Assembly (NCBI GenBank): GCA_963669225.2
Contig: CAXXMW010000008.1
Coordinates: 24,778-88,777, forward strand
Direction: 5' to 3'
Length of the DNA stretch: 64,000 nucleotides
Source of the DNA: an uncultured Arenicella sp.
GTDB taxonomy: Bacteria > Pseudomonadota > Gammaproteobacteria > Arenicellales > Arenicellaceae
The notes under the pieces were generated by a model that saw only the letters and a program-made list of their open reading frames with translations, made no database searches and was not told the DNA's origin. Positions 1 to 64,000 of the stretch are shown one piece after another. Position numbers and translations under genes: made by a program. Position 1 is the stretch's first letter. Every line of letters begins with the position of its first letter.

Positions 1-1950
1 TGCCAGGCCCGCTTTGTAGTTCAAGCCGACAAGGGGTAACGCATTTCGCACAAGTCGCCAGGTGAGCGAGAACTCGGAGTTGTTCAAGAAGCTCCATCCT
101 GGCGCCCAATTCCAATGAGAGCGAATCTCCTCCGTCGTCCAGCCGTGCCGCTCGCTGAGAGGATCAGAAGCGGAACCCACCACTAGCTCCCGATATAGTT
201 CTTTTCGAGGCCGTGAAAGGTCACTGGACCCAAGAAGGTTACGAAGGGCCGTTCGGCACTCGCGGACAAACAGTGTTTCGCCCAAAGGCCTACGTCGACC
301 TTCAGCCTTTGGGTCTGACTTTAGGCGAGGAAAAGTCCGACTCGCCTTCAGTCTCCACACTGCGTCCCCCGTCAAAGCTCTGCCCAGGTATGCAAGTCTT
401 TCAGCAAGCCAGTGGCTCTCCAGATCAGGCATACCTAGACCCCCGTTGCGTGTACGTTGGATACAGACCTGCCTACGGACCATCGGCCTTGCACCTCCCC
501 AGAGCAATCTGGAAAGGGATCGTTGCAGCGCCAACCGATTTACCTTAGGCAGAGGAAGTACAGCCAATCGGTAAAGGATCAAGGGGAAGACGTACACGGC
601 GCACGCCTCCGCCCTGCCCTTTAAGGACAACCTCCTTGAAAGCCAGATTCCCACCTGAGCATTCACCTTGGCTTGTACTTCCGACCAATTTCGCTCCAGT
701 TGGAGGCCGGGCCCGAACCACACCCCGAGGATGCGGACGGGTCCGTCACTCCAGCGGAACGGCCCCGGAAGAGTATTGCTACCCCTCCAAGCACCGAGCC
801 GCAAACCTTCGCTTTTGTCAAAATTGACCTTGGCTCCTGCAATCCGCTCGTACTCGCTAACCGCCTTCTTCACAGCCTTTATATCCAGACGGCGGGATAC
901 AAACACTGTGATATCATCGGCGAACGCGGAAACCCCTGCCGTAAGAGGGCCAGCAAAAGGGACACCGCGCAGGGCCGGATTTGCCGTCCTATCCCTAAGC
1001 CTACGGAGCAGGGGCTCCAAAGCTAGGACATAGAGAAGAGGAGACAACGGGCAGCCCTGCCGGACCGACCGCTCGACCGCGAACACCGTCGAACGCCTTC
1101 CGTTCACCTGCACCACTGCCTGAGGGTTGTGGTACATCATGCTAATCCATCTGCGGAACTCCGGTTTGAATCCGGCAGTCTCCAAAACAGTCGCCAAAAA
1201 CCGATGGTCAACCCTATCGAAGGCCTTGGACTGATCTAAACTGATCAGCGCGGCCTCGGTGTCGTCTTCTATACCCTCTAGGACCTCGCGAATCAAGTGC
1301 AGGTTGTCCTGGATCGATCTTCCCTTCACAGCAAAGGTCTGCTCAGAGCCGATCAGATCGCTAATGACAAGCTGTAAACGATTCGCTAAGACCCGGGCCA
1401 AAATCTTTAACTCTGTGTTAAGCAGAGTTATGGGCCTGTAATCGTCTAAACCCTCCCAAACATGCCTGCCACCTTTCTTCAGCAATGTGATCACGCCCTT
1501 GGTAACGCTACCAGGGATGGCTCCCTGGGCGAACCAATGGTTGAACATATCCGTCAGAATAGGCACAAACATGTGCGACATCCTCAAGTACACTTCGTAG
1601 GGCAAACCATCTAGTCCCGGCGACTTGTTCAGGCCGACCTGCTTCAACGCGTCACGGACTTCGCATTCAGTAACCACACCCTCGCAGCTAGCCGCTTCAG
1701 CCACCCCAAGGCGGGGGAAGTCGGCAAGATAGCTACGAAACTCCCGGAGCGGGAGATCAGTACAGCGGGCAAAGCGATCCCGAAAGTGCGCCCGAAAGGC
1801 GTCACGAATCTCACGAGTCGATCGCAGCAGTCGCCCATCCGGGGCCTTGACAGAACCGATATACCGATCGGGGAACCTTCGCACTTCTTCTTCACGCGCA
1901 GTCGCGTTCGTTTTCACAGCTTCGTTGAGAACTCTCTTTAACCTAGATCT
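1..1950 (-). pseudogene. ORF2 fragment lacking the endonuclease; retains RT core (QGCPLSP, AFADD); open at the window edge
   Basis: In frame with the equivalent ORF2 region of U1; the upstream UTR sequence has an in-frame TAG at 1960-1962, so there is no fusion ORF. Confidence 0.9.
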
Positions 1951-1951
1951 A
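1..1951 (-). mobile_element. U0: 5'-truncated copy (starts at ORF2 codon ~350, continues beyond left edge)
   Basis: 1-1951 matches U1 3137-5087 (offset 3136). At 1951/1952 the ORF2 sequence AACCTAGATCTA is followed by TTTACCTTCTAG (3' terminus of U1) instead of ACTACGTATCC. Confidence 0.95.
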
Positions 1952-1968
1952 TTTACCTTCTAGTCTAC

Positions 1969-1974
1969 TTTATT
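1969..1974 (-). promoter_or_regulatory. Putative polyadenylation signal AATAAA 17 nt before the element 3' end (same position in every unit, e.g. 8403-8408)
   Basis: Sense strand reads CAGA-AATAAA-GTAGACTAGAAGGTAAA to the terminus defined by the U0 junction; the spacing fits canonical cleavage/polyadenylation. Confidence 0.6.
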
Positions 1975-2659
1975 TCTGTGTAGTGTACACAGAAGGCACA
2001 AGGCCTTGAAGTTTTTGGGGAGGGGAAGGGAGCGGTCATACTTTTCTATATAAACTAAGGAGACCTAGCTAGCCACATTCGCCGACCCATTCAACAATAC
2101 AATAAATATTCATTCATCCATCGCCTTTTGCGCTACAATCACCAAAATACCACATTTGCTCTATGAAGAAGTCCTACTTAAAATCCCGAGATTCGTGAAT
2201 GATTTTATGATTTATTTACAATGAATGTGATGGGAATGGGAGAAAAACCCCGAAATATATACAAAAACAAAGGAAAAATCCCCCGTTTGGTTGCCCTCCC
2301 ATCCCCCCGTCTATAAAATTGGAGGCCGACTGTTTTCCGGGGCGAAAGAACCGGAAACAAGTCGGACCTACCCTAGGTGGGGCAGGGATCCTAATCTACA
2401 GGGGTGAAAAGAATTTAGGGGTCGGGCGCGGTATGGGTTAATACAAGTAGGTGATATGATTTTTATACATATGAATGTTCAAGATCTTCAGTAAACGTGG
2501 ACTGGGATACGGATTGAGGTACAAAAATAATGGGGATGGGGAAGATCTTGAGAACTAACAACTAGATGACGGGGACAATGACTCACAAACATACTGCTAA
2601 CTAGGTACCTGGGTACCAAAAGAAAAAGGGAACAGTTTTACTCACCAGGGGTGGGGTCC

Positions 2660-5600
2660 CTAAGGACCCGTACCGTAGACGCCATGAGCCGGCAGAGGAG
2701 GGAAGGATGACTCCAACGTTGCTCCCTTTCGCACGACCAGGCTCGCTGCATTCACCCACCTTTTGCTGAATGTTATGCGATCCAAGCGTTTTCTATCGCA
2801 TCTGATTTTGACCCTCAGCTGATGCCGAAAATACAAAATCAGATCACGATGAGAAAAGTTTGCATCGTCATACAATCCCTTGTTTCGCGTCGTCCAAATC
2901 ACCATTCTAGCTACAGCTAGGATCGCGAGAAACACCACACGCTTCTCACCCTGATACGGAGGAAGAACGTTGTCCACGACGTAACCAACGTCGAGCAGCA
3001 CGAGCTGTTTGGGTTCGATGCGAGCCGTCCACTCGCCGACGTGATCCCAAAACGGGCGAACTCGCTCGCAGTAGTAGAAGGCGTGCTCAGCCGTTTCTTC
3101 CAAGCCACTGCCGCAGCGAGCGCAATCGGGCATGTCTGCCAGGCCCGCTTTGTAGTTCAAGCCGACAAGGGGTAACGCATTTCGCACAAGTCGCCAGGTG
3201 AGCGAGAACTCGGAGTTGTTCAAGAAGCTCGATCCTGGCGCCCAATTCCAATGAGAGCGAATCTCCTCCGTCGTCCAGCCGTGCCGCTCGCTGAGAGGAT
3301 CAGAAGCGGAACCCACCACTAGCTCCCGATATAGTTCTTTTCGAGGCCGTGAAAGGTCACTGGACCCAAGAAGGTTACGAAGGGCCGTTCGGCACTCGCG
3401 GACAAACAGTGTTTCGCCCAAAGGCCTACGTCGACCTTCAGCCTTTGGGTCTGACTTTAGGCGAGGAAAAGTCCGACTCGCCTTCAGTCTCCACACTGCG
3501 TCCCCCGTCAAGGCTCTGCCCAAGTATGCAAGTCTTTCAGCAAGCCAGTGGCTCTCCAGATCAGGCATACCTAGACCCCCGTTGCGTGTACGTTGGATAC
3601 AGACCTGCCTACGGACCATCGGCCTTGCACCTCCCCAGAGCAATCTGGAAAGGGATCGTTGCAGCGCCAACCGATTTACCTTAGGCAGAGGAAGTACAGC
3701 CAATCGGTAAAGGATCAAGGGGAAGACGTACACGGCGCACGCCTCCGCCCTGCCCTTTAAGGACAACCTCCTTGAAAGCCAGATTCCCACCTGAGCATTC
3801 ACCTTGGCTTGTATTTCCGACCAATTTCGCTCCAGTTGGAGGCCGGGCCCGAACCACACCCCGAGGATGCGGACGGGTCCGTCACTCCAGCGGAACGGCC
3901 CCGGAAGAGTATTGCTACCCCTCCAAGCACCGAGCCGCAAACCTTCGCTTTTGTCAAAATTGACCTTGGCTCCTGCAATCCGCTCGTACTCGCTAACCGC
4001 CTTCTTCACAGCCTTTATATCCAGACGGCGGGATACAAACACTGTGATATCATCGGCGAACGCGGAAACCCTTGCCGTAAGAGGGCCAGCAAAAGGGACA
4101 CCGCGCAGGGCCGGATTTGCCGTCCTATCCCTAAGCCTACGGAGCAGGGGCTCCAAAGCTAGGACATAGAGAAGAGGAGACAACGGGCAGCCCTGCCGGA
4201 CCGACCGCTCGACCGCGAACACCGTCGAACGCCTTCCGTTCACCTGCACCACTGCCTGAGGGTTGTGGTACATCATGCTAATCCATCTGCGGAACTCCGG
4301 TTTGAATCCGGCAGTCTCCAAAACAGTCGCCAAAAACCGATGGTCAACCCTATCGAAGGCCTTGGACTGATCTAAACTGATCAGCGCGGCCTCGGTGCCG
4401 TCTTCTATACCCTCTAGGACCTCGCGAATCAAGTGCAGGTTGTCCTGGATCGATCTTCCCTTCACAGCAAAGGTCTGCTCAGAGCCGATCAGATCGCTAA
4501 TGACAAGCTGTAAACGATTCGCTAAGACCCGGGCCAAAATCTTTAACTCTGTGTTAAGCAGAGTTATGGGCCTGTAATCGTCTAAACCCTCCCAAACATG
4601 CCTGCCACCTTTCTTCAGCAATGTGATCACGCCCTTGGTAACGCTACCAGGGATGGCTCCCTGGGCGAACCAATGGTTGAACATATCCGTCAGAATAGGC
4701 ACAAACATGTGCGACATCCTCAAGTACACTTCGTAGGGCAAACCATCTAGTCCCGGCGACTTGTTCAGGCCGACCTGCTTCAACGCGTCACGGACTTCGC
4801 ATTCAGTAACCACACCCTCGCAGCTAGCCGCTTCAGCCACCCCAAGGCGGGGAAAGTCGGCAAGATAGCTACGAAACTCCCGGAGCGGGAGATCAGTACA
4901 GCGGGCAAAGCGATCCCGAAAGTGCGCCCGAAAGGCGTCACGAATCTCGCGAGCCGATCGCAGCAGTCGCCCATCCGGGGCCTTGACAGAACCGATATAC
5001 CGATCGGGGAACCTTCGCACTTCTTCTTCACGCGCAGTCGCGTTCGTTTTCACAGCTTCGTTGAGAACTCTCTTTAACCTAGATCTAACTACGTATCCCT
5101 TGTAGCGCTCGCTACTCTCGCGCTCAAGGTCCCCCCTAGCTAGCTCTACGTTTAGGGAGTCCCCCCCAGCCACCGCCCGGGAAAGTCTATCGTCTATAGA
5201 TTTCGCTTCCTTGGTCCTATCTAGGTTGAGCTGTTGACCGTACTTGGTAGCGAAATCTCTAATCCTATGTTTAAGAGATCCCCACCACCTATTCCCGGTA
5301 ACCGCCCCCACTAACGCCCGCTGAATTAGGGATTCCAGCCGGTCCCGGAAGTCCCGTATCTCCAGTAAGGAGGTATTGAACTTCCAGTAGCCGGCCAGAC
5401 TAGGCCTATTTGCTAACCGTAGACTGACTCTAACAAGTTTATGGTCAGTCCACGCTATCAAGTGGAACGTGGGACAACTAACAAAATCAATGTCAGCTCG
5501 TCTCACTAACACTCTGTCCAAGTAGGAGCCTACTTTGGCAGAGGGCGAACTATCTAGCCACGTCCACATCTCCCGCCCTGGGTGATCCAGACGAAACCTG

Positions 5601-6127
5601 TCGACGAGGTCATGACGAGTCATGAGGCCGGCAAGGCTGCTTTCACACCTTCCCACACGCCTAGCTCCCCGCCCGACCTTATCTATCTTGGGATCAAGGA
5701 TCGCATTCCAATCACCCATTAAAACTAGCCGCTTCGTATCGTCCAGGAACGGCGCCAACCGACGAAAAAAGGAAACCCTCTCCACAACGATATTGGGCGC
5801 ATAAACCGCAACCAGACGAAACTTGAAACTTTTCACGGCAACATCGGCCACAACCAGTCGGCCCCCGTCACCTGCAAAAACAACGTCAACATCAGCATCA
5901 AGGCTGCGTCCAACTAGCAAAGAAACCCCAACGCTGGTACGGCTGCCGTATGCTGAGAAAACGTTAAAATCGCTTTCCAGCACACGACAGTCGGCACCGC
6001 AAGTGAAATGGGTTTCCTGCACTGCAGCAACATCTACGCCGAGAGTTTTAAGTTCACCAAGCAAGCGCGTACACTTGCCCGGATCCCTCAATCCCCTCAC
6101 ATTCAAAGTAGCAAGGTTTAGAGCCAT
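2660..6127 (-). CDS. U1 ORF2p: APE endonuclease + reverse transcriptase + C-terminal CCHC, 1155 aa
   Basis: EN motifs LNVRG, QETH, VYAP, GDWN, LDR, TDH; RT motifs KSPGLDG, YRPITLLN, LDQSKAFDRV, QGCPLSP, AFADD, ILGV; GGLG motif; CARC-x9-H-x4-C. The ATG at 6127 (MALNLATLNVRG) is preferred over the GTG at 6136. Confidence 0.96.
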   Translation of the reverse strand: MALNLATLNVRGLRDPGKCTRLLGELKTLGVDVAAVQETHFTCGADCRVLESDFNVFSAYGSRTSVGVSLLVGRSLDADVDVVFAGDGGRLVVADVAVKSFKFRLVAVYAPNIVVERVSFFRRLAPFLDDTKRLVLMGDWNAILDPKIDKVGRGARRVGRCESSLAGLMTRHDLVDRFRLDHPGREMWTWLDSSPSAKVGSYLDRVLVRRADIDFVSCPTFHLIAWTDHKLVRVSLRLANRPSLAGYWKFNTSLLEIRDFRDRLESLIQRALVGAVTGNRWWGSLKHRIRDFATKYGQQLNLDRTKEAKSIDDRLSRAVAGGDSLNVELARGDLERESSERYKGYVVRSRLKRVLNEAVKTNATAREEEVRRFPDRYIGSVKAPDGRLLRSAREIRDAFRAHFRDRFARCTDLPLREFRSYLADFPRLGVAEAASCEGVVTECEVRDALKQVGLNKSPGLDGLPYEVYLRMSHMFVPILTDMFNHWFAQGAIPGSVTKGVITLLKKGGRHVWEGLDDYRPITLLNTELKILARVLANRLQLVISDLIGSEQTFAVKGRSIQDNLHLIREVLEGIEDGTEAALISLDQSKAFDRVDHRFLATVLETAGFKPEFRRWISMMYHNPQAVVQVNGRRSTVFAVERSVRQGCPLSPLLYVLALEPLLRRLRDRTANPALRGVPFAGPLTARVSAFADDITVFVSRRLDIKAVKKAVSEYERIAGAKVNFDKSEGLRLGAWRGSNTLPGPFRWSDGPVRILGVWFGPGLQLERNWSEIQAKVNAQVGIWLSRRLSLKGRAEACAVYVFPLILYRLAVLPLPKVNRLALQRSLSRLLWGGARPMVRRQVCIQRTRNGGLGMPDLESHWLAERLAYLGRALTGDAVWRLKASRTFPRLKSDPKAEGRRRPLGETLFVRECRTALRNLLGSSDLSRPRKELYRELVVGSASDPLSERHGWTTEEIRSHWNWAPGSSFLNNSEFSLTWRLVRNALPLVGLNYKAGLADMPDCARCGSGLEETAEHAFYYCERVRPFWDHVGEWTARIEPKQLVLLDVGYVVDNVLPPYQGEKRVVFLAILAVARMVIWTTRNKGLYDDANFSHRDLILYFRHQLRVKIRCDRKRLDRITFSKRWVNAASLVVRKGATLESSFPPLPAHGVYGTGP

Positions 6128-6141
6128 CAATCCCACTTACC

Positions 6142-8089
6142 TTACTCAGTGTCGACTACGGGCCGGAAATCCTTCGGGGTGAGGATGCCGACGGCCTGAC
6201 GCAGGGATCCGGTGCCGAGCTCAGTACTTACTCGGTCGTCCCTGGTAATTCCACCGACATCCATAGGGTACCGCAACTTTAGGGACCTATAGAATGATGG
6301 GTGAACCAAAATCGGGACCCTGCCCGCACAGAAGGGTAGCATTTTTTTCAGCATTGGATTTTTCGTATCGACCAGCATTACATCCGCCCGGCTGGCTTCG
6401 TCAATAAAGTTCCAGAGTTCTTTGGTCCGATTGCCAGCCAAGCGGACGAATGTGGTCAACTTTGGTGCGTCCTTGAATAGATGTGGCTTTGTGATGTCTT
6501 TAGTGTCAATTTTTTGGAGTGAGCGTAATGGTTTTAATGATTGTTTTAAAGTGTGGTCTATGTGTGGATTGTCCATGATATCTTCGCAGAAGTAAAAAGA
6601 GTTTATGGCACGTCGGGCTTCCGTAGAGCGTGCTCTTGGTTTTTGAACAGTTGCTGCTGATGTTGACGGTGTTTGGGGAGAGGGTGTAAGTCTGGTTGCT
6701 GAATAGGATCGAGTAAGCATTTTGGGGGTTTTAATTGGTGAAAGAGAGGGGGGTAATGGTATTTCCGTTGGGATGATAGGGGTTGTTTTTGTTTTTTGTG
6801 GGAGAGGAATCAATTGTGCTGGTCTTTGTTTATTTGGGACTGGTGATTTTTCTGTTGTTTTTTCCCCCTTATTTTGAGGTATGGTGGGTGTTTGTGTGGG
6901 TTTTTTTGGATGTTTTTTCTCCCCCTCTTTAGTTGGTGAATCCTCGCTGTCTCTCCTTCTTTTTAAATTCATGGACATATCCATCGGTTCAATGTTTTGG
7001 TTGTCTTCTTTTGTTGATTGTTTTGCAGTTGATTGTTTCGTATTTGTGGTCGTTGGTTTCGTAGTTGTAGTCAAAAGAGTTGTTGTATCTGTTGTTGCTG
7101 GGTTTTTTAGGGGGAGTTTTTTTCCCTCCCTTTTTTCTGGTGACTTGCGTCCACCCTTCTTCATTTTCTTTAGGGGTTTCTTGTTTGTTTTCTGAGGTTT
7201 CTGTTGGTATTATTGCTGCTATGACAGGTGAAGGAGTAGCAGTAGTAGTAGTAGTAGTATTCGTTGTTGTGGTGGTGATTGTTGATTTTTGAGGGCAGTT
7301 TTTTGAAAAGTGGCCGATGTTATTGCAAAACCAACATAGCGGTTTCCTGCCCTCAACTATGACTGTCATGGTTTGATCGCGGTAACGTATTTTATGGGGA
7401 ATTTTGTTAAACCCTCCCCTATCGAGGCATATAACGAATACGTAGTCACCGTACGCAGTTCCCCGTGTTGACGTTACTTGTGTGACTTGTTCCACGCCGC
7501 CGTATATACTTAGATAGGCGGCGAGGACGTCACCACTCAATTGCATAGATACATTGCATACGGTGACTCGTATTCTTCTTTTGCCTCGATATTCCGGTTG
7601 TAGCCGGAAGAAGCGTGTGGTGATGTTACCACCGGCGAGGCTTTTCGCTACTTCCTCTGAGGGTAATAAGACATCCCAGGTCGCGAAACTTCTGCGGCAG
7701 AAGTACTTCCCTGGGATGTTTGCTGTTTTGAGAAGGTCCTCAAAAGTTTCCTTCTTAATCCCCGCTAGTCTCTTGGTCTTAATGTCTGTGACTACGAAGG
7801 ACAGGGTCTTCGGTTCGACCGCCTCGACCAATTCGGGTATTGGGAGAATTTCCCCGTCCTTGAAATACTTTTCATACTTTTCGACCCTGTCTCTTGCGTA
7901 GTCACAAGGGGATTTTTTATTCACGCAATGTGAAGACCAAGAGACAGCCGTTTGTTTTTGTTTTTGTGCCGGTGGTATTGTACTTGCCGATGAAGAGAGG
8001 TCGAATGGAGCTTCTTCCGGCATTGGGGAGGGTTGCGTTTTGAATATGTCGGTCGGTGATTGCGATTTCATGTTGTTGGGCTCCCCCAT
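6142..8089 (-). pseudogene. U1 ORF1 with a +1 frameshift in the homopolymer tract near 7090-7100
   Basis: Span is 1948 nt (not a multiple of 3); the track splits it into 6989..8089 and 6142..7164. CTGGGTTTTTTAGGGGG has one base more than intact alleles; could be a sequencing error. Confidence 0.85.
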
Positions 8090-8385
8090 AGTTGTGAAAA
8101 CACAACCAGAGGGAGATGAAACGCGTATGGTGTTGCAAAAAATTCAGGCGAGACGAATAAATGTAGAACGATGAATGTTGATAAAAATGGCGGTCGTTTT
8201 TTTTTTAAAAAAGTTCAACAAAAAAATCGAGTCGCGTTTGACCCTCCTCACAAACAAAGAACAATAGTTTGAGGGGGGTCACAAAACTTTAACAACAATA
8301 ACAATATTCAATAACAATAATTTTAACAAATTTTTAACAATAAAGAACTTACTTTTTCGTGGTGAAAAAGAACTCAGACAAAAAA
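8090..8385 (-). promoter_or_regulatory. 5' UTR (~296 nt), presumed internal Pol II promoter region; repeated in each unit
   Basis: Lies between the unit head and the ORF1 ATG; AT-rich, with AACAAT repeats and two hairpins. Promoter function is inferred from L1-clade biology. Confidence 0.55.
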
Positions 8386-8407
8386 TTTACCTTCTAGTCT
8401 GCTTTAT

Positions 8408-8428
8408 TTCTGTGTAGTGTACACAGAA
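8408..8428. other. Perfect 9-bp hairpin TTCTGTGTA-GTG-TACACAGAA immediately 5' of AATAAA in the sense RNA
   Basis: The arms are exact reverse complements; present in all tails, altered at two positions in U5 (around 27710-27722). Confidence 0.7.
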
Positions 8429-8450
8429 GGCACAAGGCCTTGAAGTTTTT

Positions 8451-8984: not shown

Positions 8985-9092
8985 GAACTAACAACTAGAT
9001 GACGGGGACAATGACTCACAAACATACTGCTAACTAGGTACCTGGGTACCAAAAGAAAAAGGGAACAGTTTTACTCACCAGGGGTGGGGTCC

Positions 9093-54121: not shown

Positions 54122-57100
54122 CTAAGGACCCGTACCGTAGACGCCATGAGCCGGCAGAGGAGGGAAGGATGACTCCAACGTTGCTCCCTTTCGCACGACC
54201 AGGCTCGCTGCATTCACCCACCTTTTGCTGAATGTTATGCGATCCAAGCGTTTTCTATCGCATCTGATTTTGACCCTCAGCTGATGCCGAAAATACAAAA
54301 TCAGATCACGATGAGAAAAGTTTGCATCGTCATACAATCCCTTGTTTCGCGTCGTCCAAATCACCATTCTAGCTACAGCTAGGATCGCGAGAAACACCAC
54401 ACGCTTCTCACCCTGATACGGAGGAAGAACGTTGTCCACGACGTAACCAACGTCGAGCAGCACGAGCTGTTTGGGTTCGATGCGAGCCGTCCACTCGCCG
54501 ACGTGATCCCAAAACGGGCGAACTCGCTCGCAGTAGTAGAAGGCGTGCTCAGCCGTTTCTTCCAAGCCACTGCCGCAGCGAGCGCAATCGGGCATGTCTG
54601 CCAGGCCCGCTTTGTAGTTCAAGCCGACAAGGGGTAACGCATTTCGCACAAGTCGCCAGGTGAGCGAGAACTCGGAGTTGTTCAAGAAGCTCGATCCTGG
54701 CGCCCAATTCCAATGAGAGCGAATCTCCTCCGTCGTCCAGCCGTGCCGCTCGCTGAGAGGATCAGAAGCGGAACCCACCACTAGCTCCCGATATAGTTCT
54801 TTTCGAGGCCGTGAAAGGTCACTGGACCCAAGAAGGTTACGAAGGGCCGTTCGGCACTCGCGGACAAACAGTGTTTCGCCCAAAGGCCTACGTCGACCTT
54901 CAGCCTTTGGGTCTGACTTTAGGCGAGGAAAAGTCCGACTCGCCTTCAGTCTCCACACTGCGTCCCCCGTCAAAGCTCTGCCCAGGTATGCAAGTCTTTC
55001 AGCAAGCCAGTGGCTCTCCAGATCAGGCATACCTAGACCCCCGTTGCGTGTACGTTGGATACAGACCTGCCTACGGACCATCGGCCTTGCACCTCCCCAG
55101 AGCAATCTGGAAAGGGATCGTTGCAGCGCCAACCGATTTACCTTAGGCAGAGGAAGTACAGCCAATCGGTAAAGGATCAAGGGGAAGACGTACACGGCGC
55201 ACGCCTCCGCCCTGCCCTTTAAGGACAACCTCCTTGAAAGCCAGATTCCCACCTGAGCATTCACCTTGGCTTGTATTTCCGACCAATTTCGCTCCAGTTG
55301 GAGGCCGGGCCCGAACCACACCCCGAGGATGCGGACGGGTCCGTCACTCCAGCGGAACGGCCCCGGAAGAGTATTGCTACCCCTCCAAGCACCGAGCCGC
55401 AAACCTTCGCTTTTGTCAAAATTGACCTTGGCTCCTGCAATCCGCTCGTACTCGCTAACCGCCTTCTTCACAGCCTTTATATCCAGACGGCGGGATACAA
55501 ACACTGTGATATCATCGGCGAACGCGGAAACCCTTGCCGTAAGAGGGCCAGCAAAAGGGACACCGCGCAGGGCCGGATTTGCCGTCCTATCCCTAAGCCT
55601 ACGGAGCAGGGGCTCCAAAGCTAGGACATAGAGAAGAGGAGACAACGGGCAGCCCTGCCGGACCGACCGCTCGACCGCGAACACCGTCGAACGCCTTCCG
55701 TTCACCTGCACCACTGCCTGAGGGTTGTGGTACATCATGCTAATCCATCTGCGGAACTCCGGTTTGAATCCGGCAGTCTCCAAAACAGTCGCCAAAAACC
55801 GATGGTCAACCCTATCGAAGGCCTTGGACTGATCTAAACTGATCAGCGCGGCCTCGGTGCCGTCTTCTATACCCTCTAGGACCTCGCGAATCAAGTGCAG
55901 GTTGTCCTGGATCGATCTTCCCTTCACAGCAAAGGTCTGCTCAGAGCCGATCAGATCGCTAATGACAAGCTGTAAACGATTCGCTAAGACCCGGGCCAAA
56001 ATCTTTAACTCTGTGTTAAGCAGAGTTATGGGCCTGTAATCGTCTAAACCCTCCCAAACATGCCTGCCACCTTTCTTCAGCAATGTGATCACGCCCTTGG
56101 TAACGCTACCAGGGATGGCTCCCTGGGCGAACCAATGGTTGAACATATCCGTCAGAATAGGCACAAACATGTGCGACATCCTCAAGTACACTTCGTAGGG
56201 CAAACCATCTAGTCCCGGCGACTTGTTCAGGCCGACCTGCTTCAACGCGTCACGGACTTCGCATTCAGTAACCACACCCTCGCAGCTAGCCGCTTCAGCC
56301 ACCCCAAGGCGGGGAAAGTCGGCAAGATAGCTACGAAACTCCCGGAGCGGGAGATCAGTACAGCGGGCAAAGCGATCCCGAAAGTGCGCCCGAAAGGCGT
56401 CACGAATCTCGCGAGCCGATCGCAGCAGTCGCCCATCCGGGGCCTTGACAGAACCGATATACCGATCGGGGAACCTTCGCACTTCTTCTTCACGCGCAGT
56501 CGCGTTCGTTTTCACAGCTTCGTTGAGAACTCTCTTTAACCTAGATCTAACTACGTATCCCTTGTAGCGCTCGCTACTCTCGCGCTCAAGGTCCCCCCTA
56601 GCTAGCTCTACGTTTAGGGAGTCCCCCCCAGCCACCGCCCGGGAAAGTCTATCGTCTATAGATTTCGCTTCCTTGGTCCTATCTAGGTTGAGCTGTTGAC
56701 CGTACTTGGTAGCGAAATCTCTAATCCTATGTTTAAGAGATCCCCACCACCTATTCCCGGTAACCGCCCCCACTAACGCCCGCTGAATTAGGGATTCCAG
56801 CCGGTCCCGGAAGTCCCGTATCTCCAGTAAGGAGGTATTGAACTTCCAGTAGCCGGCCAGACTAGGCCTATTTGCTAACCGTAGACTGACTCTAACAAGT
56901 TTATGGTCAGTCCACGCTATCAAGTGGAACGTGGGACAACTAACAAAATCAATGTCAGCTCGTCTCACTAACACTCTGTCCAAGTAGGAGCCTACTTTGG
57001 CAGAGGGCGAACTATCTAGCCACGTCCACATCTCCCGCCCTGGGTGATCCAGACGAAACCTGTCGACGAGGTCATGACGAGTCATGAGGCCGGCAAGGCT

Positions 57101-57589
57101 GCTTTCACACCTTCCCACACGCCTAGCTCCCCGCCCGACCTTATCTATCTTGGGATCAAGGATCGCATTCCAATCACCCATTAAAACTAGCCGCTTCGTA
57201 TCGTCCAGGAACGGCGCCAACCGACGAAAAAAGGAAACCCTCTCCACAACGATATTGGGCGCATAAACCGCAACCAGACGAAACTTGAAACTTTTCACGG
57301 CAACATCGGCCACAACCAGTCGGCCCCCGTCACCTGCAAAAACAACGTCAACATCAGCATCAAGGCTGCGTCCAACTAGCAAAGAAACCCCAACGCTGGT
57401 ACGGCTGCCGTATGCTGAGAAAACGTTAAAATCGCTTTCCAGCACACGACAGTCGGCACCGCAAGTGAAGTGGGTTTCCTGCACTGCAGCAACATCTACG
57501 CCGAGAGTTTTAAGTTCACCAAGCAAGCGCGTACACTTGCCCGGATCCCTCAATCCCCTCACATTCAAAGTAGCAAGGTTTAGAGCCAT
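54122..57589 (-). CDS. U9 ORF2p, intact
   Basis: Open frame in the track (54122..57598). Confidence 0.96.
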   Translation of the reverse strand: MALNLATLNVRGLRDPGKCTRLLGELKTLGVDVAAVQETHFTCGADCRVLESDFNVFSAYGSRTSVGVSLLVGRSLDADVDVVFAGDGGRLVVADVAVKSFKFRLVAVYAPNIVVERVSFFRRLAPFLDDTKRLVLMGDWNAILDPKIDKVGRGARRVGRCESSLAGLMTRHDLVDRFRLDHPGREMWTWLDSSPSAKVGSYLDRVLVRRADIDFVSCPTFHLIAWTDHKLVRVSLRLANRPSLAGYWKFNTSLLEIRDFRDRLESLIQRALVGAVTGNRWWGSLKHRIRDFATKYGQQLNLDRTKEAKSIDDRLSRAVAGGDSLNVELARGDLERESSERYKGYVVRSRLKRVLNEAVKTNATAREEEVRRFPDRYIGSVKAPDGRLLRSAREIRDAFRAHFRDRFARCTDLPLREFRSYLADFPRLGVAEAASCEGVVTECEVRDALKQVGLNKSPGLDGLPYEVYLRMSHMFVPILTDMFNHWFAQGAIPGSVTKGVITLLKKGGRHVWEGLDDYRPITLLNTELKILARVLANRLQLVISDLIGSEQTFAVKGRSIQDNLHLIREVLEGIEDGTEAALISLDQSKAFDRVDHRFLATVLETAGFKPEFRRWISMMYHNPQAVVQVNGRRSTVFAVERSVRQGCPLSPLLYVLALEPLLRRLRDRTANPALRGVPFAGPLTARVSAFADDITVFVSRRLDIKAVKKAVSEYERIAGAKVNFDKSEGLRLGAWRGSNTLPGPFRWSDGPVRILGVWFGPGLQLERNWSEIQAKVNAQVGIWLSRRLSLKGRAEACAVYVFPLILYRLAVLPLPKVNRLALQRSLSRLLWGGARPMVRRQVCIQRTRNGGLGMPDLESHWLAERLAYLGRALTGDAVWRLKASRTFPRLKSDPKAEGRRRPLGETLFVRECRTALRNLLGSSDLSRPRKELYRELVVGSASDPLSERHGWTTEEIRSHWNWAPGSSFLNNSEFSLTWRLVRNALPLVGLNYKAGLADMPDCARCGSGLEETAEHAFYYCERVRPFWDHVGEWTARIEPKQLVLLDVGYVVDNVLPPYQGEKRVVFLAILAVARMVIWTTRNKGLYDDANFSHRDLILYFRHQLRVKIRCDRKRLDRITFSKRWVNAASLVVRKGATLESSFPPLPAHGVYGTGP

Positions 57590-57603
57590 CAATCCCACTT
57601 ACC

Positions 57604-59553
57604 TTACTCAGTGTCGACTACGGGCCGGAAATCCTTCGGGGTGAGGATGCCGACGGCCTGACGCAGGGATCCGGTGCCGAGCTCAGTACTTACTCGGTCG
57701 TCCCTGGTAATTCCACCGACATCCATAGGGTACCGCAACTTTAGGGACCTATAGAATGATGGGTGAACCAAAATCGGGACCCTGCCCGCACAGAAGGGTA
57801 GCATTTTTTTCAGCATTGGATTTTTCGTATCGACCAGCATTACATCCGCCCGGCTGGCTTCGTCAATAAAGTTCCAGAGTTCTTTGGTCCGATTGCCAGC
57901 CAAGCGGACGAATGTGGTCAATTTTGGTGCGTCCTTGAATAGATGTGGTTTTGTGATGTCTTTAGTGTCAATTTTTTGGAGTGAGCGTAATGGTTTTAAT
58001 GATTGTTTTAAAGTGTGGTCTATGTGTGGATTGTCCATGATATCTTCGCAGAAGTAAAAAGAGTTTATGGCACGTCGGGCTTCCGTAGAGCGTGCTCTTG
58101 GTTTTTGAACAGTTGCTGCTGATGTTGACGGTGTTTGGGGAGAGGGTGTAAGTCTGGTTGCTGAATAGGATCGAGTAAGCATTTTGGGGGTTTTAATTGG
58201 TGAAAGAGAGGGGGGTAATGGTGTTTCTGTTGGGATGATAGGGGTGGTTTTTGTTTTTTGTGGGAGAGGAATCAATTGTGCTGGTCTTTGTTTATTTTGG
58301 ACTGGCGATTTTTCTGTTGTTTTTTCCCCCTTATGCTGAGGTATGGTGGTTGTTTGTGTGGGTTTTTTTGGATGTTTTTTCTCCCCCTCTTTAGTTGGTG
58401 AGTCCTCGCTGTCTCTCCTTCTTTTTAAATTCATGGACATATCCATCGGTTCAATGTTTTGATTGTCTTCTTTTGTTGATTGTTTTGCAGTTGATTGTTT
58501 CGTATTTGTTGTCGTTGGTTTCGTAGTTGTAGTCAAAAGAGTTGTTGTATCTGTTGTTGCTGGGTTTTTTGGGGGAGTTTTTTTCCCTCCCTTTTTTCTG
58601 GTGACTTGCGTCCACCCTTTCTCATTTTCTTTAGGGGTTTCTTGTTTGTTTTCTGAGGTTTCTGTTGGTATTATTGCTGCTATGACAGGTGAAGGAGTAT
58701 CAGTAGTAGTAGCAGTAGTAGTAGTCGTTGTTGTGGTGGTGATTGTTGGTTTTTGAGGGCAGTTTTTTGAAAAGTGGCCGATGTTATTGCAGGACCAACA
58801 TAGCGGTTTCCTGCCCTCAACGATGACTGTCATGGTTTGATCGCGGTAACGTATTTTATGGGGAATTTTGTTAAACCCTCCCCTATCGAGGCACATAACG
58901 AATACGTAGTCACCGTACGCGGTTCCCCGTGTTGACGTTACTTGTGTGACTTGTTCCACGCCGCCGTATATACTTAGATAGGCGGCGAGGACGTCACCAC
59001 TCAATTGCATAGATACATTGCATACGGTGACTCGTATTCTTCTTTTGCCTCGATATTCCGGTTGTAGCCGGAAGAAGCGTGTGGTGATGTTACCACCGGC
59101 GAGGCTTTTCGCTACTTCCTCTGAGGGTAATAAGACATCCCAGGTCGCGAAACTTCTGCGGCAGAAGTACTTCCCTGGGATGTTTGCTGTTTTGAGAAGG
59201 TCCTCAAAAGTTTCCTTCTTAATCCCCGCTAGTCTCTTGGTCTTAATGTCTGTGACTACGAAGGACAGGGTCTTCGGTTCGACCGCCTCGACCAATTCGG
59301 GTATTGGGAGAATTTCCCCGTCCTTGAAATACTTTTCATACTTTTCGACCCTGTCTCTTGCGTAGTCACAAGGGGATTTTTTATTCACGCAATGTGAAGA
59401 CCAAGAGACAGCCGTTTCTTTTTGTTTTTGTGCCGGTGGTATTGTACTTGCCGATGAAGAGAGGTCGAATGGAGCTTCTTCCGGCATTGGGGAGGGTTGC
59501 GTTTGGAATATGTCGGTCGGTGATTGCGATTTCATGTTGTTGGGCTCCCCCAT
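57604..59553 (-). CDS. U9 ORF1p, 649 aa
   Basis: Open frame. Confidence 0.92.
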   Translation of the reverse strand: MGEPNNMKSQSPTDIFQTQPSPMPEEAPFDLSSSASTIPPAQKQKETAVSWSSHCVNKKSPCDYARDRVEKYEKYFKDGEILPIPELVEAVEPKTLSFVVTDIKTKRLAGIKKETFEDLLKTANIPGKYFCRRSFATWDVLLPSEEVAKSLAGGNITTRFFRLQPEYRGKRRIRVTVCNVSMQLSGDVLAAYLSIYGGVEQVTQVTSTRGTAYGDYVFVMCLDRGGFNKIPHKIRYRDQTMTVIVEGRKPLCWSCNNIGHFSKNCPQKPTITTTTTTTTTATTTDTPSPVIAAIIPTETSENKQETPKENEKGWTQVTRKKGGKKTPPKNPATTDTTTLLTTTTKPTTTNTKQSTAKQSTKEDNQNIEPMDMSMNLKRRRDSEDSPTKEGEKKHPKKPTQTTTIPQHKGEKTTEKSPVQNKQRPAQLIPLPQKTKTTPIIPTETPLPPSLSPIKTPKMLTRSYSATRLTPSPQTPSTSAATVQKPRARSTEARRAINSFYFCEDIMDNPHIDHTLKQSLKPLRSLQKIDTKDITKPHLFKDAPKLTTFVRLAGNRTKELWNFIDEASRADVMLVDTKNPMLKKMLPFCAGRVPILVHPSFYRSLKLRYPMDVGGITRDDRVSTELGTGSLRQAVGILTPKDFRPVVDTE

Positions 59554-59848
59554 AGTTGTGAAAACACAACCAGAGGGAGATGAAACGCGTATGGTGTTGC
59601 AAAAAATTCAGGCGAGACGAATAAATGTAGAACGATGAATGTTGATAAAAATGGCGGTCGTTTTTTTAAAAAAGTTCAACAAAAAAATCGAGTCGCGTTT
59701 GACCCTCCTCACAAACAAAGAACAATAGTTTGAGGGGGGTCACAAAACTTTAACAATGATAACAATATTCAATAACAATAATTTTAACAAATTTTTAACA
59801 ATAAAGAACTTACTTTTTTTCGTGGTGAAAAAGAACTCAGACAAAAAA

Positions 59849-62800
59849 TTTACCTTCTAGTCTGCTTTATTTCTGTGTAGTGTACACAGAAGGCACAAGG
59901 CCTTGAAGTTTTTGGGGAGGGGAAGGGAGCGGTCATACTTTTCTATATAAACTAAGGAGACCTAGCTAGCCACATTCGCCGACCCATTCAACAATACAAT
60001 AAATATCCATTCATCCATCGCCTTTTGCGCTACAATCACCACAATACCACATTTGCTCTATGAAGAAGTCCTACTTAAAATCCCGAGATTCATGAATGAT
60101 TTTATGATTTATTTACAATGAATGTGATGGGAATGGGAGAAAAACCCCGAAATATATATAAAAACAAGGAAAAATCCCCCGTTTGGTTGCCCTCCCATCC
60201 CCCCGTCTATAAAATTGGAGGCCGACTGTTTTCCGGGGCGAAAGAACCGGAAACAAGTCGGACCTACCCTAGGTGGGGCAGGGATCCTAATCTACAGGGG
60301 TGAAAAGAATTTAGGGGTCGGGCGCGGTATGGGTTAATACAAGTAGGTGATATGATTTTTATACATATGAATGTTCAAGATCTTCAGTAAACGTGGACTG
60401 GGATACGGATTGAGGTACAAAAATAATGGGGATGGGGAAGATCTTGAGAACTAACAACTAGATGACGGGGACAATGACTCACAAACATACTGCTAACTAG
60501 GTACCTGGGTACCAAAAGAAAAAGGGAACAGTTTTACTCACCAGGGGTGGGGTCCCTAAGGACCCGTACCGTAGACGCCATGAGCCGGCAGAGGAGGGAA
60601 GGATGACTCCAACGTTGCTCCCTTTCGCACGACCAGGCTCGCTGCATTCACCCACCTTTTGCTGAATGTTATGCGATCCAAGCGTTTTCTATCGCATCTG
60701 ATTTTGACCCTCAGCTGATGCCGAAAATACAAAATCAGATCACGATGAGAAAAGTTTGCATCGTCATACAATCCCTTGTTTCGCGTCGTCCAAATCACCA
60801 TTCTAGCTACAGCTAGGATCGCGAGAAACACCACACGCTTCTCACCCTGATACGGAGGAAGAACGTTGTCCACGACGTAACCAACGTCGAGCAGCACGAG
60901 CTGTTTGGGTTCGATGCGAGCCGTCCACTCGCCGACGTGATCCCAAAACGGGCGAACTCGCTCGCAGTAGTAGAAGGCGTGCTCAGCCGTTTCTTCCAAG
61001 CCACTGCCGCAGCGAGCGCAATCGGGCATGTCTGCCAGGCCCGCTTTGTAGTTCAAGCCGACAAGGGGTAACGCATTTCGCACAAGTCGCCAGGTGAGCG
61101 AGAACTCGGAGTTGTTCAAGAAGCTCGATCCTGGCGCCCAATTCCAATGAGAGCGAATCTCCTCCGTCGTCCAGCCGTGCCGCTCGCTGAGAGGATCAGA
61201 AGCGGAACCCACCACTAGCTCCCGATATAGTTCTTTTCGAGGCCGTGAAAGGTCACTGGACCCAAGAAGGTTACGAAGGGCCGTTCGGCACTCGCGGACA
61301 AACAGTGTTTCGCCCAAAGGCCTACGTCGACCTTCAGCCTTTGGGTCTGACTTTAGGCGAGGAAAAGTCCGACTCGCCTTCAGTCTCCACACTGCGTCCC
61401 CCGTCAAAGCTCTGCCCAGGTATGCAAGTCTTTCAGCAAGCCAGTGGCTCTCCAGATCAGGCATACCTAGACCCCCGTTGCGTGTACGTTGGATACAGAC
61501 CTGCCTACGGACCATCGGCCTTGCACCTCCCCAGAGCAATCTGGAAAGGGATCGTTGCAGCGCCAACCGATTTACCTTAGGCAGAGGAAGTACAGCCAAT
61601 CGGTAAAGGATCAAGGGGAAGACGTACACGGCGCACGCCTCCGCCCTGCCCTTTAAGGACAACCTCCTTGAAAGCCAGATTCCCACCTGAGCATTCACCT
61701 TGGCTTGTATTTCCGACCAATTTCGCTCCAGTTGGAGGCCGGGCCCGAACCACACCCCGAGGATGCGGACGGGTCCGTCACTCCAGCGGAACGGCCCCGG
61801 AAGAGTATTGCTACCCCTCCAAGCACCGAGCCGCAAACCTTCGCTTTTGTCAAAATTGACCTTGGCTCCTGCAATCCGCTCGTACTCGCTAACCGCCTTC
61901 TTCACAGCCTTTATATCCAGACGGCGGGATACAAACACTGTGATATCATCGGCGAACGCGGAAACCCTTGCCGTAAGAGGGCCAGCAAAAGGGACACCGC
62001 GCAGGGCCGGATTTGCCGTCCTATCCCTAAGCCTACGGAGCAGGGGCTCCAAAGCTAGGACATAGAGAAGAGGAGACAACGGGCAGCCCTGCCGGACCGA
62101 CCGCTCGACCGCGAACACCGTCGAACGCCTTCCGTTCACCTGCACCACTGCCTGAGGGTTGTGGTACATCATGCTAATCCATCTGCGGAACTCCGGTTTG
62201 AATCCGGCAGTCTCCAAAACAGTCGCCAAAAACCGATGGTCAACCCTATCGAAGGCCTTGGACTGATCTAAACTGATCAGCGCGGCCTCGGTGTCGTCTT
62301 CTATACCCTCTAGGACCTCGCGAATCAAGTGCAGGTTGTCCTGGATCGATCTTCCCTTCACAGCAAAGGTCTGCTCAGAGCCGATCAGATCGCTAATGAC
62401 AAGCTGTAAACGATTCGCTAAGACCCGGGCCAAAATCTTTAACTCTGTGTTAAGCAGAGTTATGGGCCTGTAATCGTCTAAACCCTCCCAAACATGCCTG
62501 CCACCTTTCTTCAGCAATGTGATCACGCCCTTGGTAACGCTACCAGGGATGGCTCCCTGGGCGAACCAATGGTTGAACATATCCGTCAGAATAGGCACAA
62601 ACATGTGCGACATCCTCAAGTACACTTCGTAGGGCAAACCATCTAGTCCCGGCGACTTGTTCAGGCCGACCTGCTTCAACGCGTCACGGACTTCGCATTC
62701 AGTAACCACACCCTCGCAGCTAGCCGCTTCAGCCACCCCAAGGCGGGGAAAGTCGGCAAGATAGCTACGAAACTCCCGGAGCGGGAGATCAGTACAGCGG

Positions 62801-64000
62801 GCAAAGCGATCCCGAAAGTGCGCCCGAAAGGCGTCACGAATCTCACGAGCCGATCGCAGCAGTCGCCCATCCGGGGCCTTGACAGAACCGATATACCGAT
62901 CGGGGAACCTTCGCACTTCTTCTTCACGCGCAGTCGCGTTCGTTTTCACAGCTTCGTTGAGAACTCTCTTTAACCTAGATCTAACTACGTATCCCTTGTA
63001 GCGCTCGCTACTCTCGCGCTCAAGGTCCCCCCTAGCTAGCTCTACGTTTAGGGAGTCCCCCCCAGCCACCGCCCGGGAAAGTCTATCGTCTATAGATTTC
63101 GCTTCCTTGGTCCTATCTAGGTTGAGCTGTTGACCGTACTTGGTAGCGAAATCTCTAATCCTATGTTTAAGAGATCCCCACCACCTATTCCCGGTAACCG
63201 CCCCCACTAACGCCCGCTGAATTAGGGATTCCAGCCGGTCCCGGAAGTCCCGTATCTCCAGTAAGGAGGTATTGAACTTCCAGTAGCCGGCCAGACTAGG
63301 CCTATTTGCTAACCGTAGACTGACTCTAACAAGTTTATGGTCAGTCCACGCTATCAAGTGGAACGTGGGACAACTAACAAAATCAATGTCAGCTCGTCTC
63401 ACTAACACTCTGTCCAAGTAGGAGCCTACTTTGGCAGAGGGCGAACTATCTAGCCACGTCCACATCTCCCGCCCTGGGTGATCCAGACGAAACCTGTCGA
63501 CGAGGTCATGACGAGTCATGAGGCCGGCAAGGCTGCTTTCACACCTTCCCACACGCCTAGCTCCCCGCCCGACCTTATCTATCTTGGGATCAAGGATCGC
63601 ATTCCAATCACCCATTAAAACTAGCCGCTTCGTATCGTCCAGGAACGGCGCCAACCGACGAAAAAAGGAAACCCTCTCCACAACGATATTGGGCGCATAA
63701 ACCGCAACCAGACGAAACTTGAAACTTTTCACGGCAACATCGGCCACAACCAGTCGGCCCCCGTCACCTGCAAAAACAACGTCAACATCAGCATCAAGGC
63801 TGCGTCCAACTAGCAAAGAAACCCCAACGCTGGTACGGCTGCCGTATGCTGAGAAAACGTTAAAATCGCTTTCCAGCACACGACAGTCGGCACCGCAAGT
63901 GAAGTGGGTTTCCTGCACTGCAGCAACATCTACGCCGAGAGTTTTAAGTTCACCAAGCAAGCGCGTACACTTGCCCGGATCCCTCAATCCCCTCACATTC
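59849..64000 (-). mobile_element. U10, partial (cut by the right window edge)
   Basis: 3' UTR and nearly all of ORF2 are present; the 5' part lies outside the window. Confidence 0.93.
60556..64000 (-). CDS. U10 ORF2p, open as far as visible; first ~8 codons lie outside the window
   Basis: The track's start at 63996 is the GTG of LNVRG, not a real start; all downstream motifs are intact. Confidence 0.92.
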   Translation of the reverse strand, partial: NVRGLRDPGKCTRLLGELKTLGVDVAAVQETHFTCGADCRVLESDFNVFSAYGSRTSVGVSLLVGRSLDADVDVVFAGDGGRLVVADVAVKSFKFRLVAVYAPNIVVERVSFFRRLAPFLDDTKRLVLMGDWNAILDPKIDKVGRGARRVGRCESSLAGLMTRHDLVDRFRLDHPGREMWTWLDSSPSAKVGSYLDRVLVRRADIDFVSCPTFHLIAWTDHKLVRVSLRLANRPSLAGYWKFNTSLLEIRDFRDRLESLIQRALVGAVTGNRWWGSLKHRIRDFATKYGQQLNLDRTKEAKSIDDRLSRAVAGGDSLNVELARGDLERESSERYKGYVVRSRLKRVLNEAVKTNATAREEEVRRFPDRYIGSVKAPDGRLLRSAREIRDAFRAHFRDRFARCTDLPLREFRSYLADFPRLGVAEAASCEGVVTECEVRDALKQVGLNKSPGLDGLPYEVYLRMSHMFVPILTDMFNHWFAQGAIPGSVTKGVITLLKKGGRHVWEGLDDYRPITLLNTELKILARVLANRLQLVISDLIGSEQTFAVKGRSIQDNLHLIREVLEGIEDDTEAALISLDQSKAFDRVDHRFLATVLETAGFKPEFRRWISMMYHNPQAVVQVNGRRSTVFAVERSVRQGCPLSPLLYVLALEPLLRRLRDRTANPALRGVPFAGPLTARVSAFADDITVFVSRRLDIKAVKKAVSEYERIAGAKVNFDKSEGLRLGAWRGSNTLPGPFRWSDGPVRILGVWFGPGLQLERNWSEIQAKVNAQVGIWLSRRLSLKGRAEACAVYVFPLILYRLAVLPLPKVNRLALQRSLSRLLWGGARPMVRRQVCIQRTRNGGLGMPDLESHWLAERLAYLGRALTGDAVWRLKASRTFPRLKSDPKAEGRRRPLGETLFVRECRTALRNLLGSSDLSRPRKELYRELVVGSASDPLSERHGWTTEEIRSHWNWAPGSSFLNNSEFSLTWRLVRNALPLVGLNYKAGLADMPDCARCGSGLEETAEHAFYYCERVRPFWDHVGEWTARIEPKQLVLLDVGYVVDNVLPPYQGEKRVVFLAILAVARMVIWTTRNKGLYDDANFSHRDLILYFRHQLRVKIRCDRKRLDRITFSKRWVNAASLVVRKGATLESSFPPLPAHGVYGTGP

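Follow-up and report, generated by a model that had tools for sequence, protein, structure and literature searches.

The locus analysed here raises the question of how a long run of retrotransposon copies comes to lie head to tail in a single orientation. It is a stretch of 64,000 nucleotides of contig CAXXMW010000008.1 (positions 24,778 to 88,777 of the forward strand; assembly GCA_963669225.2), hereafter the window, and a repeat of ~6.43 kb, present on the minus strand only, occupies all of it, as seen by BLAST of one unit against the window and by repeat finding. A sequence-only reading had taken the window for a candidate telomeric or centromeric array lengthened by end-on addition of copies, with an interstitial retro-satellite as the fallback. 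Our analysis points to a different origin: the window is probably a tandem stack built by repeated insertion of a retrotransposon without long terminal repeats (non-LTR) into a site that renews itself with each insertion, together with unequal exchange between the copies. The array is real and young and arose at least partly by separate retrotranspositions, as that reading had it; its headline telomere model is the part that did not survive, and its fallback is close to what the evidence shows.

The evidence that carries this proposal lies in the joints between units. The element begins with TTTTTTGTCTGAG... and ends in AATAAA, and each of the 10 joints of the window follows one layout: AATAAA, then 14–17 nt consisting of GCAGACTAGAAGGT plus AAA(A) or GAA, then the 5′ end of the next unit. 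There is no poly(A) at any of them, in agreement with the earlier observation. The accompanying claim that the copies adjoin without spacer or target remnant has to be abandoned, since every joint holds a target-site duplication (TSD) of 14–17 nt, which is also found at both ends of one solo copy and at other array termini. Insertion duplicates the full 17-mer, GCAGACTAGAAGGTGAA, and any two adjacent units are separated by a single copy of this 17-mer. Its exact GAA form occurs at one joint (14812–14828), and the remaining nine, including that of a truncated unit, carry a G-to-A variant. Nine of the ten are full-length joints, uniform and devoid of an A-tail. The joints of the related arrays L001, L010 and L002 likewise contain the duplication.

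Nine complete units, one cut at the high-coordinate edge and one truncated at its 5′ end make up the window, all head to tail on the minus strand, in keeping with the first count of at least 11 copies in one orientation. They are spaced by 6401–6446 bp and are 98.4–100% identical to the reference unit S3 (BLAST), a measured counterpart to the very low divergence first judged by eye. A search of the window with TRF found no short-period structure. The units, their open reading frames (ORFs), untranslated regions (UTRs) and joints are as follows.

59849..64000, minus strand: unit S0p, 3′ part, its 5′ end lying beyond the window; ORF2 (60556–63996) open to the window edge.

53404..59848, minus strand: unit S1, full length and fully coding; ORF1 57604–59553, ORF2 54122–57598; target 17/18-mer at 53404–53421.

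46958..53403, minus strand: unit S2, full length and fully coding; ORF1 51158–53107, ORF2 47676–51152.

46958..46975, minus strand: joint of S2, representative of the inter-unit joints, in which AATAAA and the 5′ end (TTTTTTGTCTGAG) enclose target-derived GCAGACTAGAAGGT plus AAA(A)/GAA; here the 14-mer occupies 46962–46975 and is followed by AAAA at 46958–46961.

40523..46957, minus strand: unit S3, the reference, fully coding; 5′ UTR 46662–46957; ORF1 44712–46661 (649 aa, with a CCHC knuckle).

41230..44706, minus strand: ORF2 of S3, with apurinic/apyrimidinic endonuclease (APE) and reverse transcriptase (RT) domains and a C-terminal zinc motif.

40540..41229, minus strand: 3′ UTR of S3, terminal AATAAA at 40540–40545; the target 17-mer follows at 40523–40539.

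34096..40522, minus strand: unit S4; ORF1 intact (38280–40229), ORF2 split by a frameshift into 35968–38274 and 34798–35940.

27680..34095, minus strand: unit S5, the most degenerate; neither ORF intact, owing to ~20 deletions of one base and one of 17 bp near 30064.

21249..27679, minus strand: unit S6; ORF1 broken, ORF2 intact (21956–25432).

14812..21248, minus strand: unit S7, fully coding; ORF1 19010–20953, ORF2 15528–19004; its 3′ joint (14812–14828) is GCAGACTAGAAGGTGAA, the exact target.

8386..14811, minus strand: unit S8, fully coding; ORF1 12575–14518, ORF2 9093–12569.

1952..8385, minus strand: unit S9 (U1 of the earlier reading); ORF1 broken, ORF2 intact (2660–6136); ends with AATAAA plus GTAGACTAGAAGGTAAA (1952–1968).

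1..1951, minus strand: unit S10t (U0 of the earlier reading), truncated at its 5′ end; its start, near codon 350 of ORF2, directly adjoins the 17-mer of S9, and the 3′ end is outside the window.

59849–59865, 53404–53421, 40523–40539, 34096–34112, 27680–27696, 21250–21266, 14812–14828, 8386–8402 and 1952–1968, minus strand: the other inter-unit joints.

The coding content of the units identifies the element. Seven ORF2s of 1158 aa are complete and intact (2660–6136, 9093–12569, 15528–19004, 21956–25432, 41230–44706, 47676–51152 and 54122–57598), one more leaves the window at its edge, six ORF1s are intact (647/649 aa), and five units are fully coding; the earlier counts of five fully coding units and seven intact ORF2s are reproduced exactly by the ORF list. 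In ORF2, Pfam recognises Exo_endo_phos (residues 9–232) and RVT_1 (residues 510–761), and residues 7–866 align to structures of human L1 ORF2p (E 7e-74). A C-terminal Cys/His zinc motif is visible (CARCGSG...H...C); zf-RVT scores 21.4 bits here, under its cut-off of 27.5, and is precomputed for many close relatives. In ORF1, zf-CCHC scores 22.1 bits, above the cut-off. The best named relative of ORF2 is Tx1 of Xenopus (30% identity over 943 aa, E 2e-96, 323 bits), ahead of human L1 (253 bits), so that the earlier label of a Tx1-type APE element is fair, as an assignment by domains and match scores rather than by a tree. The element is probably a young, transcribed, target-specific long interspersed nuclear element (LINE) of the L1/Tx1 group, with Tx1 as its best named relative.

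The target itself was read from other loci that encode an identical or near-identical ORF2 and come from an independent assembly (ENA ERZ21867824), in which arrays of the element are present on at least five contigs. Record look-ups with the ORF1 of the window (649- and 643-aa forms) and with the frameshifted ORF2 gave no match, and the locus of this particular array was not found in ERZ21867824. The last unit of three arrays (L001, L003 and L010) ends in ...AATAAAGCAGACTAGAAGGT and is followed by GAAGAGCAGCTTCTTATAGGAATA..., which belongs to a module of 262 bp conserved at 88–95%; beyond it the three flanks are unrelated. A diverged lone copy (L008), with no neighbouring unit in its locus, has GCAAACTAGAAGGT at both ends, is preceded on the left by ...ATATATAGCAGTAGATACTAATACCAGT and runs downstream into the same conserved 262-bp module. 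Overall, four termini of subfamilies A and B on four contigs, namely those of the three arrays and of L008, lie in the same flank (4/4). Raw Hi-C reads and contigs that reach the 5′ end of the window's element give an upstream flank GCTACTAATACCAG..GCAGACTAGAA.GTGAA, which matches L008. The loose ends at this position (reverse complement of CACATTCTAGTCTGCTCTGGTATTAGTAGC and similar) account for ~7–15% of the reads there, and the first base after GGT is G in 52–62% of reads, giving GGTGAA, the exact target, as the reading of about half to 60% of joints genome-wide. On the other side, the 3′ end of the element is followed by GAAGAGCAGCTTCTT in one loose contig end.

The target is ...TATATAGCAGTAGCTACTAATACCAG / GCAGACTAGAAGGTGAA / GAGCAGCTTCTTATAGG..., or in its longer form ...TACTAATACCAG / GCAGACTAGAAGGTGAA / GAGCAGCTTC..., and it sits in a dispersed repeat of roughly 0.5 kb. 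This repeat may be a solo LTR of 261 + 17 + 263 bp with 4-bp flanks; its LTR-like ends (TG..CA, 4-bp flank) are suggestive only, with a probability of ~0.1–0.3 of occurring by chance. A search for terminal inverted repeats shared by the two arms of the target, upstream and downstream, found none, and neither Rfam (gathering threshold for the window, L001 and L003; E-value mode for both flanks of L008) nor tRNA scans revealed a small-RNA gene as the target. A sub-threshold match to a type III hammerhead ribozyme (L008, 7068–7114; 23 bits, E 0.023), ~500 bp upstream of the insertion, is probably due to chance. We also considered the 262-bp flank as a part of the element, either a 3′ extension or an old 5′ UTR, and rejected this: the flank resembles no unit, a 14-mer brackets the L008 copy, and relatives keep the layout of AATAAA plus TSD with other flanks. 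Past the target module, the flanks (L001 14588–16233 and those of other arrays) consist of ordinary interspersed repeats, with RTE-like RT fragments, minisatellites of 71–89 bp and long (TA)n tracts, and are not subtelomeric-looking.

Relatives of the element share this mode of insertion. In every readable solo copy AATAAA is followed by a long duplication, with a TSD of 14–20 nt (14 bp in L008, 15 bp in L009, 18 bp in L006 and L007, and 20 bp in L012). Members of subfamily C (L006 7549–14187, L007 7571–14202) occupy the same position of a tandem repeat of ~466 bp with an 18-bp TSD, and their duplications (GAATCC.../TAATCC...) are matched within each locus; this sister lineage has switched to a different specific target. 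A relative of 67% identity from another sample (L012, 700–7419) lies within the 133-bp 5′ LTR of a Ty3/gypsy element, flanked by a 20-bp TSD. The host LTR has the form TG...CA and precedes a TGGCG primer-binding site, and its 3′ counterpart (11217–11349) keeps the site intact and unduplicated, which provides a direct empty-site control for the family. An older solo copy outside the usual target (L009, 7667–14166, in the middle of a 1.1-Mb contig; 15-bp duplication) begins exactly, at its 5′ end, with 18 nt, GCAGACTAATAGTTTTGA, that are a diverged version of the A-type target 17-mer.

Taken together, these data suggest the following course of events. The TSD would leave a fresh 17-mer at each end of a new insertion and the site would stay cleavable; because insertion regenerates the target, the same site could be hit again and the copies would stack. 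Later insertions, full length or 5′-truncated and from more than one subfamily, would adjoin earlier ones, giving units separated by the 17-mer alone. Unequal exchange or gene conversion between units would then reshuffle the array and probably expand it. The endonuclease would read mainly the 17-mer together with the sequence on its right.

The telomeric alternative makes other predictions. It holds that the 3′ ends were attached to an eroding chromosome end, in the manner of HeT-A/TART, with the tip beyond position 64000. The single orientation throughout fits it, as do the 5′-truncated member (1–1951) capped by a complete 3′ end and the position of the most similar, youngest-looking units (S0p–S3) on the 5′, high-coordinate side; moreover, the flanks of the window's own array are unseen. 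However, end-on healing predicts variable truncation points and no target sequence, whereas nine of the ten joints are full length, with the identical 17-nt target sequence and no oligo(A). The degenerate units S4 and S5 lie in the middle of the array and not at the proximal end. At the related loci, the 3′ ends of three arrays and of the lone copy run into one specific flank, and reads and the lone copy show the other half of the target at 5′ ends; the arrays lie within contigs of 160–364 kb, the three array termini are ~100–140 kb away from the nearest contig end (contigs of 211–364 kb), and that of the lone copy ~49 kb. Repeats of TTAGGG, TTAGG, TTAGGC, TTTAGGG, TCAGG or TTGGGG, of at least three units, were found neither in the window nor in 12 related loci. 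Uniform joints with a target duplication, related arrays inside contigs and the lack of telomere-type repeats leave the telomere model unsupported, and we regard it as highly improbable. Insertion specific for telomere repeats, as in SART/TRAS, does not apply either, the target being a different sequence.

The short copy at the low end of the window is informative in this respect. BLAST with one period makes the copy at 1–2619 seem to lack 3.3 kb. In the sense direction its joint reads ...CAGAAATAAAGTAGACTAGAAGGTAAA followed by TAGATCTAGG..., the right side being mid-ORF2, and full-length joints read ...AATAAAGCAGACTAGAAGGTAAA(A) followed by TTTTTTGTCTGAG..., with the left breakpoint at the same base. 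The copy is therefore a 5′-truncated retrotransposed copy and not an internal deletion, and since it breaks at the very base where full-length units meet, the unit boundary is fixed; in public runs of this organism, k-mer depth also shifts sharply there. There is no need to see in U0 an eroded end, because 1–1951 is a 5′-truncated ORF2 fragment joined exactly behind the 17-mer. The same depth analysis singles out the 3′ UTR of ~700 nt (46976..47675 on the minus strand, and likewise in every unit), whose k-mer depth in DNA runs is 10–100 times that of ORF1 and the 5′ UTR. The abundant relatives that share it differ only in the last 25–30 nt. This excess suggests that the tail is common to much more abundant relatives, which may be SINE-like (short interspersed nuclear elements), truncated copies or other LINE subfamilies.

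Array composition at the other loci adds to this picture. Subfamilies A and B have ORF2 and the 3′ UTR in common and differ wholly in the first ~1.8 kb (5′ UTR and most of ORF1), and both occur within single arrays, in the order B, B, B, A in L002 and A, A, B in L003. The truncated unit joined at the exact terminus and this mixture of subfamilies argue for several separate insertions. One unit of L001 (1188–7749) is an A/B recombinant, A-like for 1.1 kb and then B-like, which points to modular exchange of the ORF1 region. Three classes of joint (GAA, AAA and TCAG) recur across loci, independently of the subfamily of either neighbouring unit. Another subfamily, with an ORF2 94% identical, forms an array of 6.82-kb period that fills a 31.5-kb contig flagged circular (ctg88761c, L004/L005), with the joint AATAAA followed by ATTGTGTGTTTTATTG.

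Exchange between units has probably left its mark as well. Pairwise divergence ranges from 3–5 substitutions among S0p, S1 and S2, at the high-coordinate end, up to 65 per 6.4 kb, and 194 variant columns among the units of the window show mosaic sharing between neighbours and non-neighbours alike, with neighbours being the most similar. The mosaic variants, the similarity of neighbours and the spread of the AAA joint variant through the array fit exchange between units, and they raise the question of whether DNA-level events could have produced the whole array. In such a scenario a single tandem dimer or composite would have been amplified by unequal crossing-over or segmental duplication, without further retrotransposition. 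The near-invariant joints, with the AAA variant in 8 of 9 full-length ones, would be expected from it, and so would the 3–5 substitutions between S0p, S1 and S2 and the mosaic sharing. The same is true of two arrays, L001 (3081–14452) and L010 (3072–14445), whose collinearity (98.3%) reaches precisely to where the target module ends. On the other hand, amplification of one progenitor does not account for two subfamilies that differ over 1.8 kb within single arrays, for a 5′-truncated unit joined at the exact terminus, or for ORFs kept intact in most units; furthermore, the commonest joint genome-wide is the virgin target, and the presence of arrays at several loci argues for ongoing insertion. 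We therefore consider a purely DNA-level satellite unlikely.

Several observations do weigh against repeated insertion as we propose it. Eight of the nine full-length joints in the window carry AAA and not the GAA of the target, and joints of the AAA class also occur at other loci, in arrays that end in a GAA joint; this would not be expected if copies simply re-inserted at the terminal site. The collinearity of L001 and L010, which ends at the target module and gives way to unrelated flanks, could mean that array and target were copied together at the DNA level; the candidates are independent build-up, ectopic conversion and a move of the target together with its array. We found no target copy without an insertion, and exact patterns of the target junction and the flank module gave 0 hits in metagenome contigs of the Joint Genome Institute. 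The choice of a TSD over an RNA-borne terminal redundancy as the nature of the 17-mer rests on L008, on the continuity of GAA with the flank and on the analogous empty site of L012, and the upstream flank is represented by a single long sequence (L008) plus read ends of 30 nt. In addition, the flanks of the window's array lie outside the window, the solo copies L009 and L011 are off-target, meaning that specificity is not absolute, and the RNA-labelled contigs discussed below are unstranded and may contain DNA. As for the AAA joints, insertion into internal joints would give the same neighbour-biased, mosaic and AAA-spread pattern as unequal exchange, and the simplest reading of the truncated unit, which sits behind an AAA-type 17-mer, is that it entered at an internal joint. 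How much is owed to re-insertion and how much to unequal exchange is a matter of inference, as is the choice between terminal and internal joints as points of entry.

Alternatively, several units could have been laid down in a single event. The RT of R2 has been described as jumping between RNA templates, and concatemers would result if the enzyme, having reached the 5′ end of one RNA, switched to another at its 3′ end. If the RNA began with the 17-mer, as L009 suggests, the product would be AATAAA + 17-mer + body, just as in the arrays, and the variable 3–4 nt at the joints (GAA/AAA/TCAG) could be non-templated additions. Yet the 17-mer is still present ahead of the truncated unit, where an RT leaving a broken RNA would provide none; the units differ by up to 1%, and arrays of at least 10 x 6.4 kb would require a cDNA of more than 60 kb. 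Concatemers thus appear a distinctly unlikely source of the array.

An inflated or misjoined assembly could also simulate an array of this kind. The private 17-bp deletion of S5 was not seen in contigs of three runs or in a 1% sample of Hi-C reads, and the homopolymer-type single-base deletions of this unit resemble consensus errors. Against an artefact, arrays of the same element are present on at least five contigs of the independent assembly ERZ21867824, raw reads span the 3′-to-5′ joints at a depth of ~75–80 in a 1–2% sample, and the units carry distinct variant patterns. It is thus very unlikely that the copy number of the window was created by the assembler; the 17-bp deletion of S5 may reflect real decay, an individual-specific allele or a consensus error.

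How the element might be expressed is suggested by the position of the target. RNA-labelled runs contain the whole element, as well as unstranded contigs that cross both the upstream and the downstream target joint. In the target, the duplication is preceded by a TATATAG box 27 nt upstream, and in the unrelated target of L012 by one 29 nt upstream; the two relatives that bear this box are only 67% identical and have unrelated targets. This spacing, along with the 17-mer at the start of L009, suggests an element placed where transcription of the host repeat starts, with target sequence at the 5′ end of its RNA. We treat the use of the target promoter by the element as a lead and not as a finding; one RNA contig, which extends 15 nt further upstream, speaks against a strict start at the first base of the 17-mer. 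The site aimed at may be the U3/R border of an LTR. That the RNA would carry target sequence at its 3′ end as well, in the manner of the R region of retroviruses, is conjectural, given that L009 stops at AATAAA. If present, target-derived RNA ends could guide precise integration at both joints. Should the 17-nt joint suffice as a target, each insertion would make a new one and arrays may grow autocatalytically at any joint. The combination of these ideas, with the joint as a sufficient target, a lineage that aims at the transcription start of host repeats and RNA ends that guide integration, is tentative, and we would sooner bet against it as a whole.

The significance of the locus lies first in the replacement of a telomere story by an ordinary and testable mechanism, and in a clean natural example of a target-specific LINE becoming a satellite-like array. 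The full target sequence, the exact termini (an AATAAA 3′ end and an unusually long duplication of 14–20 nt) and many intact ORFs are now in hand, together with sister subfamilies that have switched targets between a dispersed repeat, a 466-bp satellite and a gypsy LTR. The family is thus suited to the study of how APE-type endonucleases gain new sequence specificity, and is a possible source of site-specific insertion enzymes. For annotation, orientation alone is insufficient to call such arrays telomeric or centromeric. If arrays do renew themselves in this way, they could supply the raw material for large heterochromatic or centromeric blocks in the host.

With the telomeric elements HeT-A/TART/TAHRE and with GilM/GilT of Giardia, the array shares unidirectional head-to-tail non-LTR copies that include 5′-truncated members. 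Arrays of the HeT-A type have joints of variable truncation with oligo(A) tails, lack a target duplication and lie at chromosome ends. In contrast, the joints described here are uniform and free of A-tails, the 17-nt target is specific, and the two halves of the target bound the arrays.

We place the element in the L1/Tx1 group as a new, target-specific member, although its ORF2 is only 30% identical to Tx1 and the clade is assigned by match scores. Known targets of the Tx1 clade include a piggyBac-type transposon (Tx1D), Mariner, Harbinger, LTR retrotransposons, satellites, microsatellites and snRNA (small nuclear RNA) genes (PMC4494074). Like Tx1L in Tx1D, Keno, Kibi/Koshi, Tx1-Mar and Tx1-8_Crp/Tx1-4_AMi, and like the mobilised SINEU-3, the present element is an APE-LINE system that inserts into another repeat in a sequence-specific way. 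For SINEU-3, tandem insertions "sandwiching a TSD" have been described, the TSD being 16 bp long (PMC4494074); the sequence-only reading, which knew of no such arrays as standard for Tx1-type elements, overlooked both these and the target specificity of the clade. The reported cases are mostly dimers of short SINEs, whereas here at least 10 full-length autonomous units of 6.4 kb are stacked at a new target. Dependence on a target promoter has been discussed for R2 and SINEU (PMC4494074), and the possible promoter dependence and target-derived RNA ends of our element, deduced from sequence alone, would resemble R2, R1 and other LINEs that are transcribed along with their target.

The R1 array in the X heterochromatin of Drosophila melanogaster, which with Tx1L in Tx1D or Tx1-Mar comes nearest to the present case, has a 33-nt ribosomal DNA duplication between its units and has been explained by double insertion plus unequal exchange (bioRxiv 10.1101/158386). 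Both arrays consist of a site-specific APE-type non-LTR element arranged head to tail, with an identical short target duplication (17 nt here, 33 nt in R1) and with truncated or deleted members, and the same two-step origin is proposed for both. They differ in clade, which here is the L1/Tx1 group, and in target, a dispersed repeat of ~0.5 kb versus the 28S gene; moreover, the present element forms arrays at several loci, mixes two subfamilies within them and retains coding capacity in most of its units.

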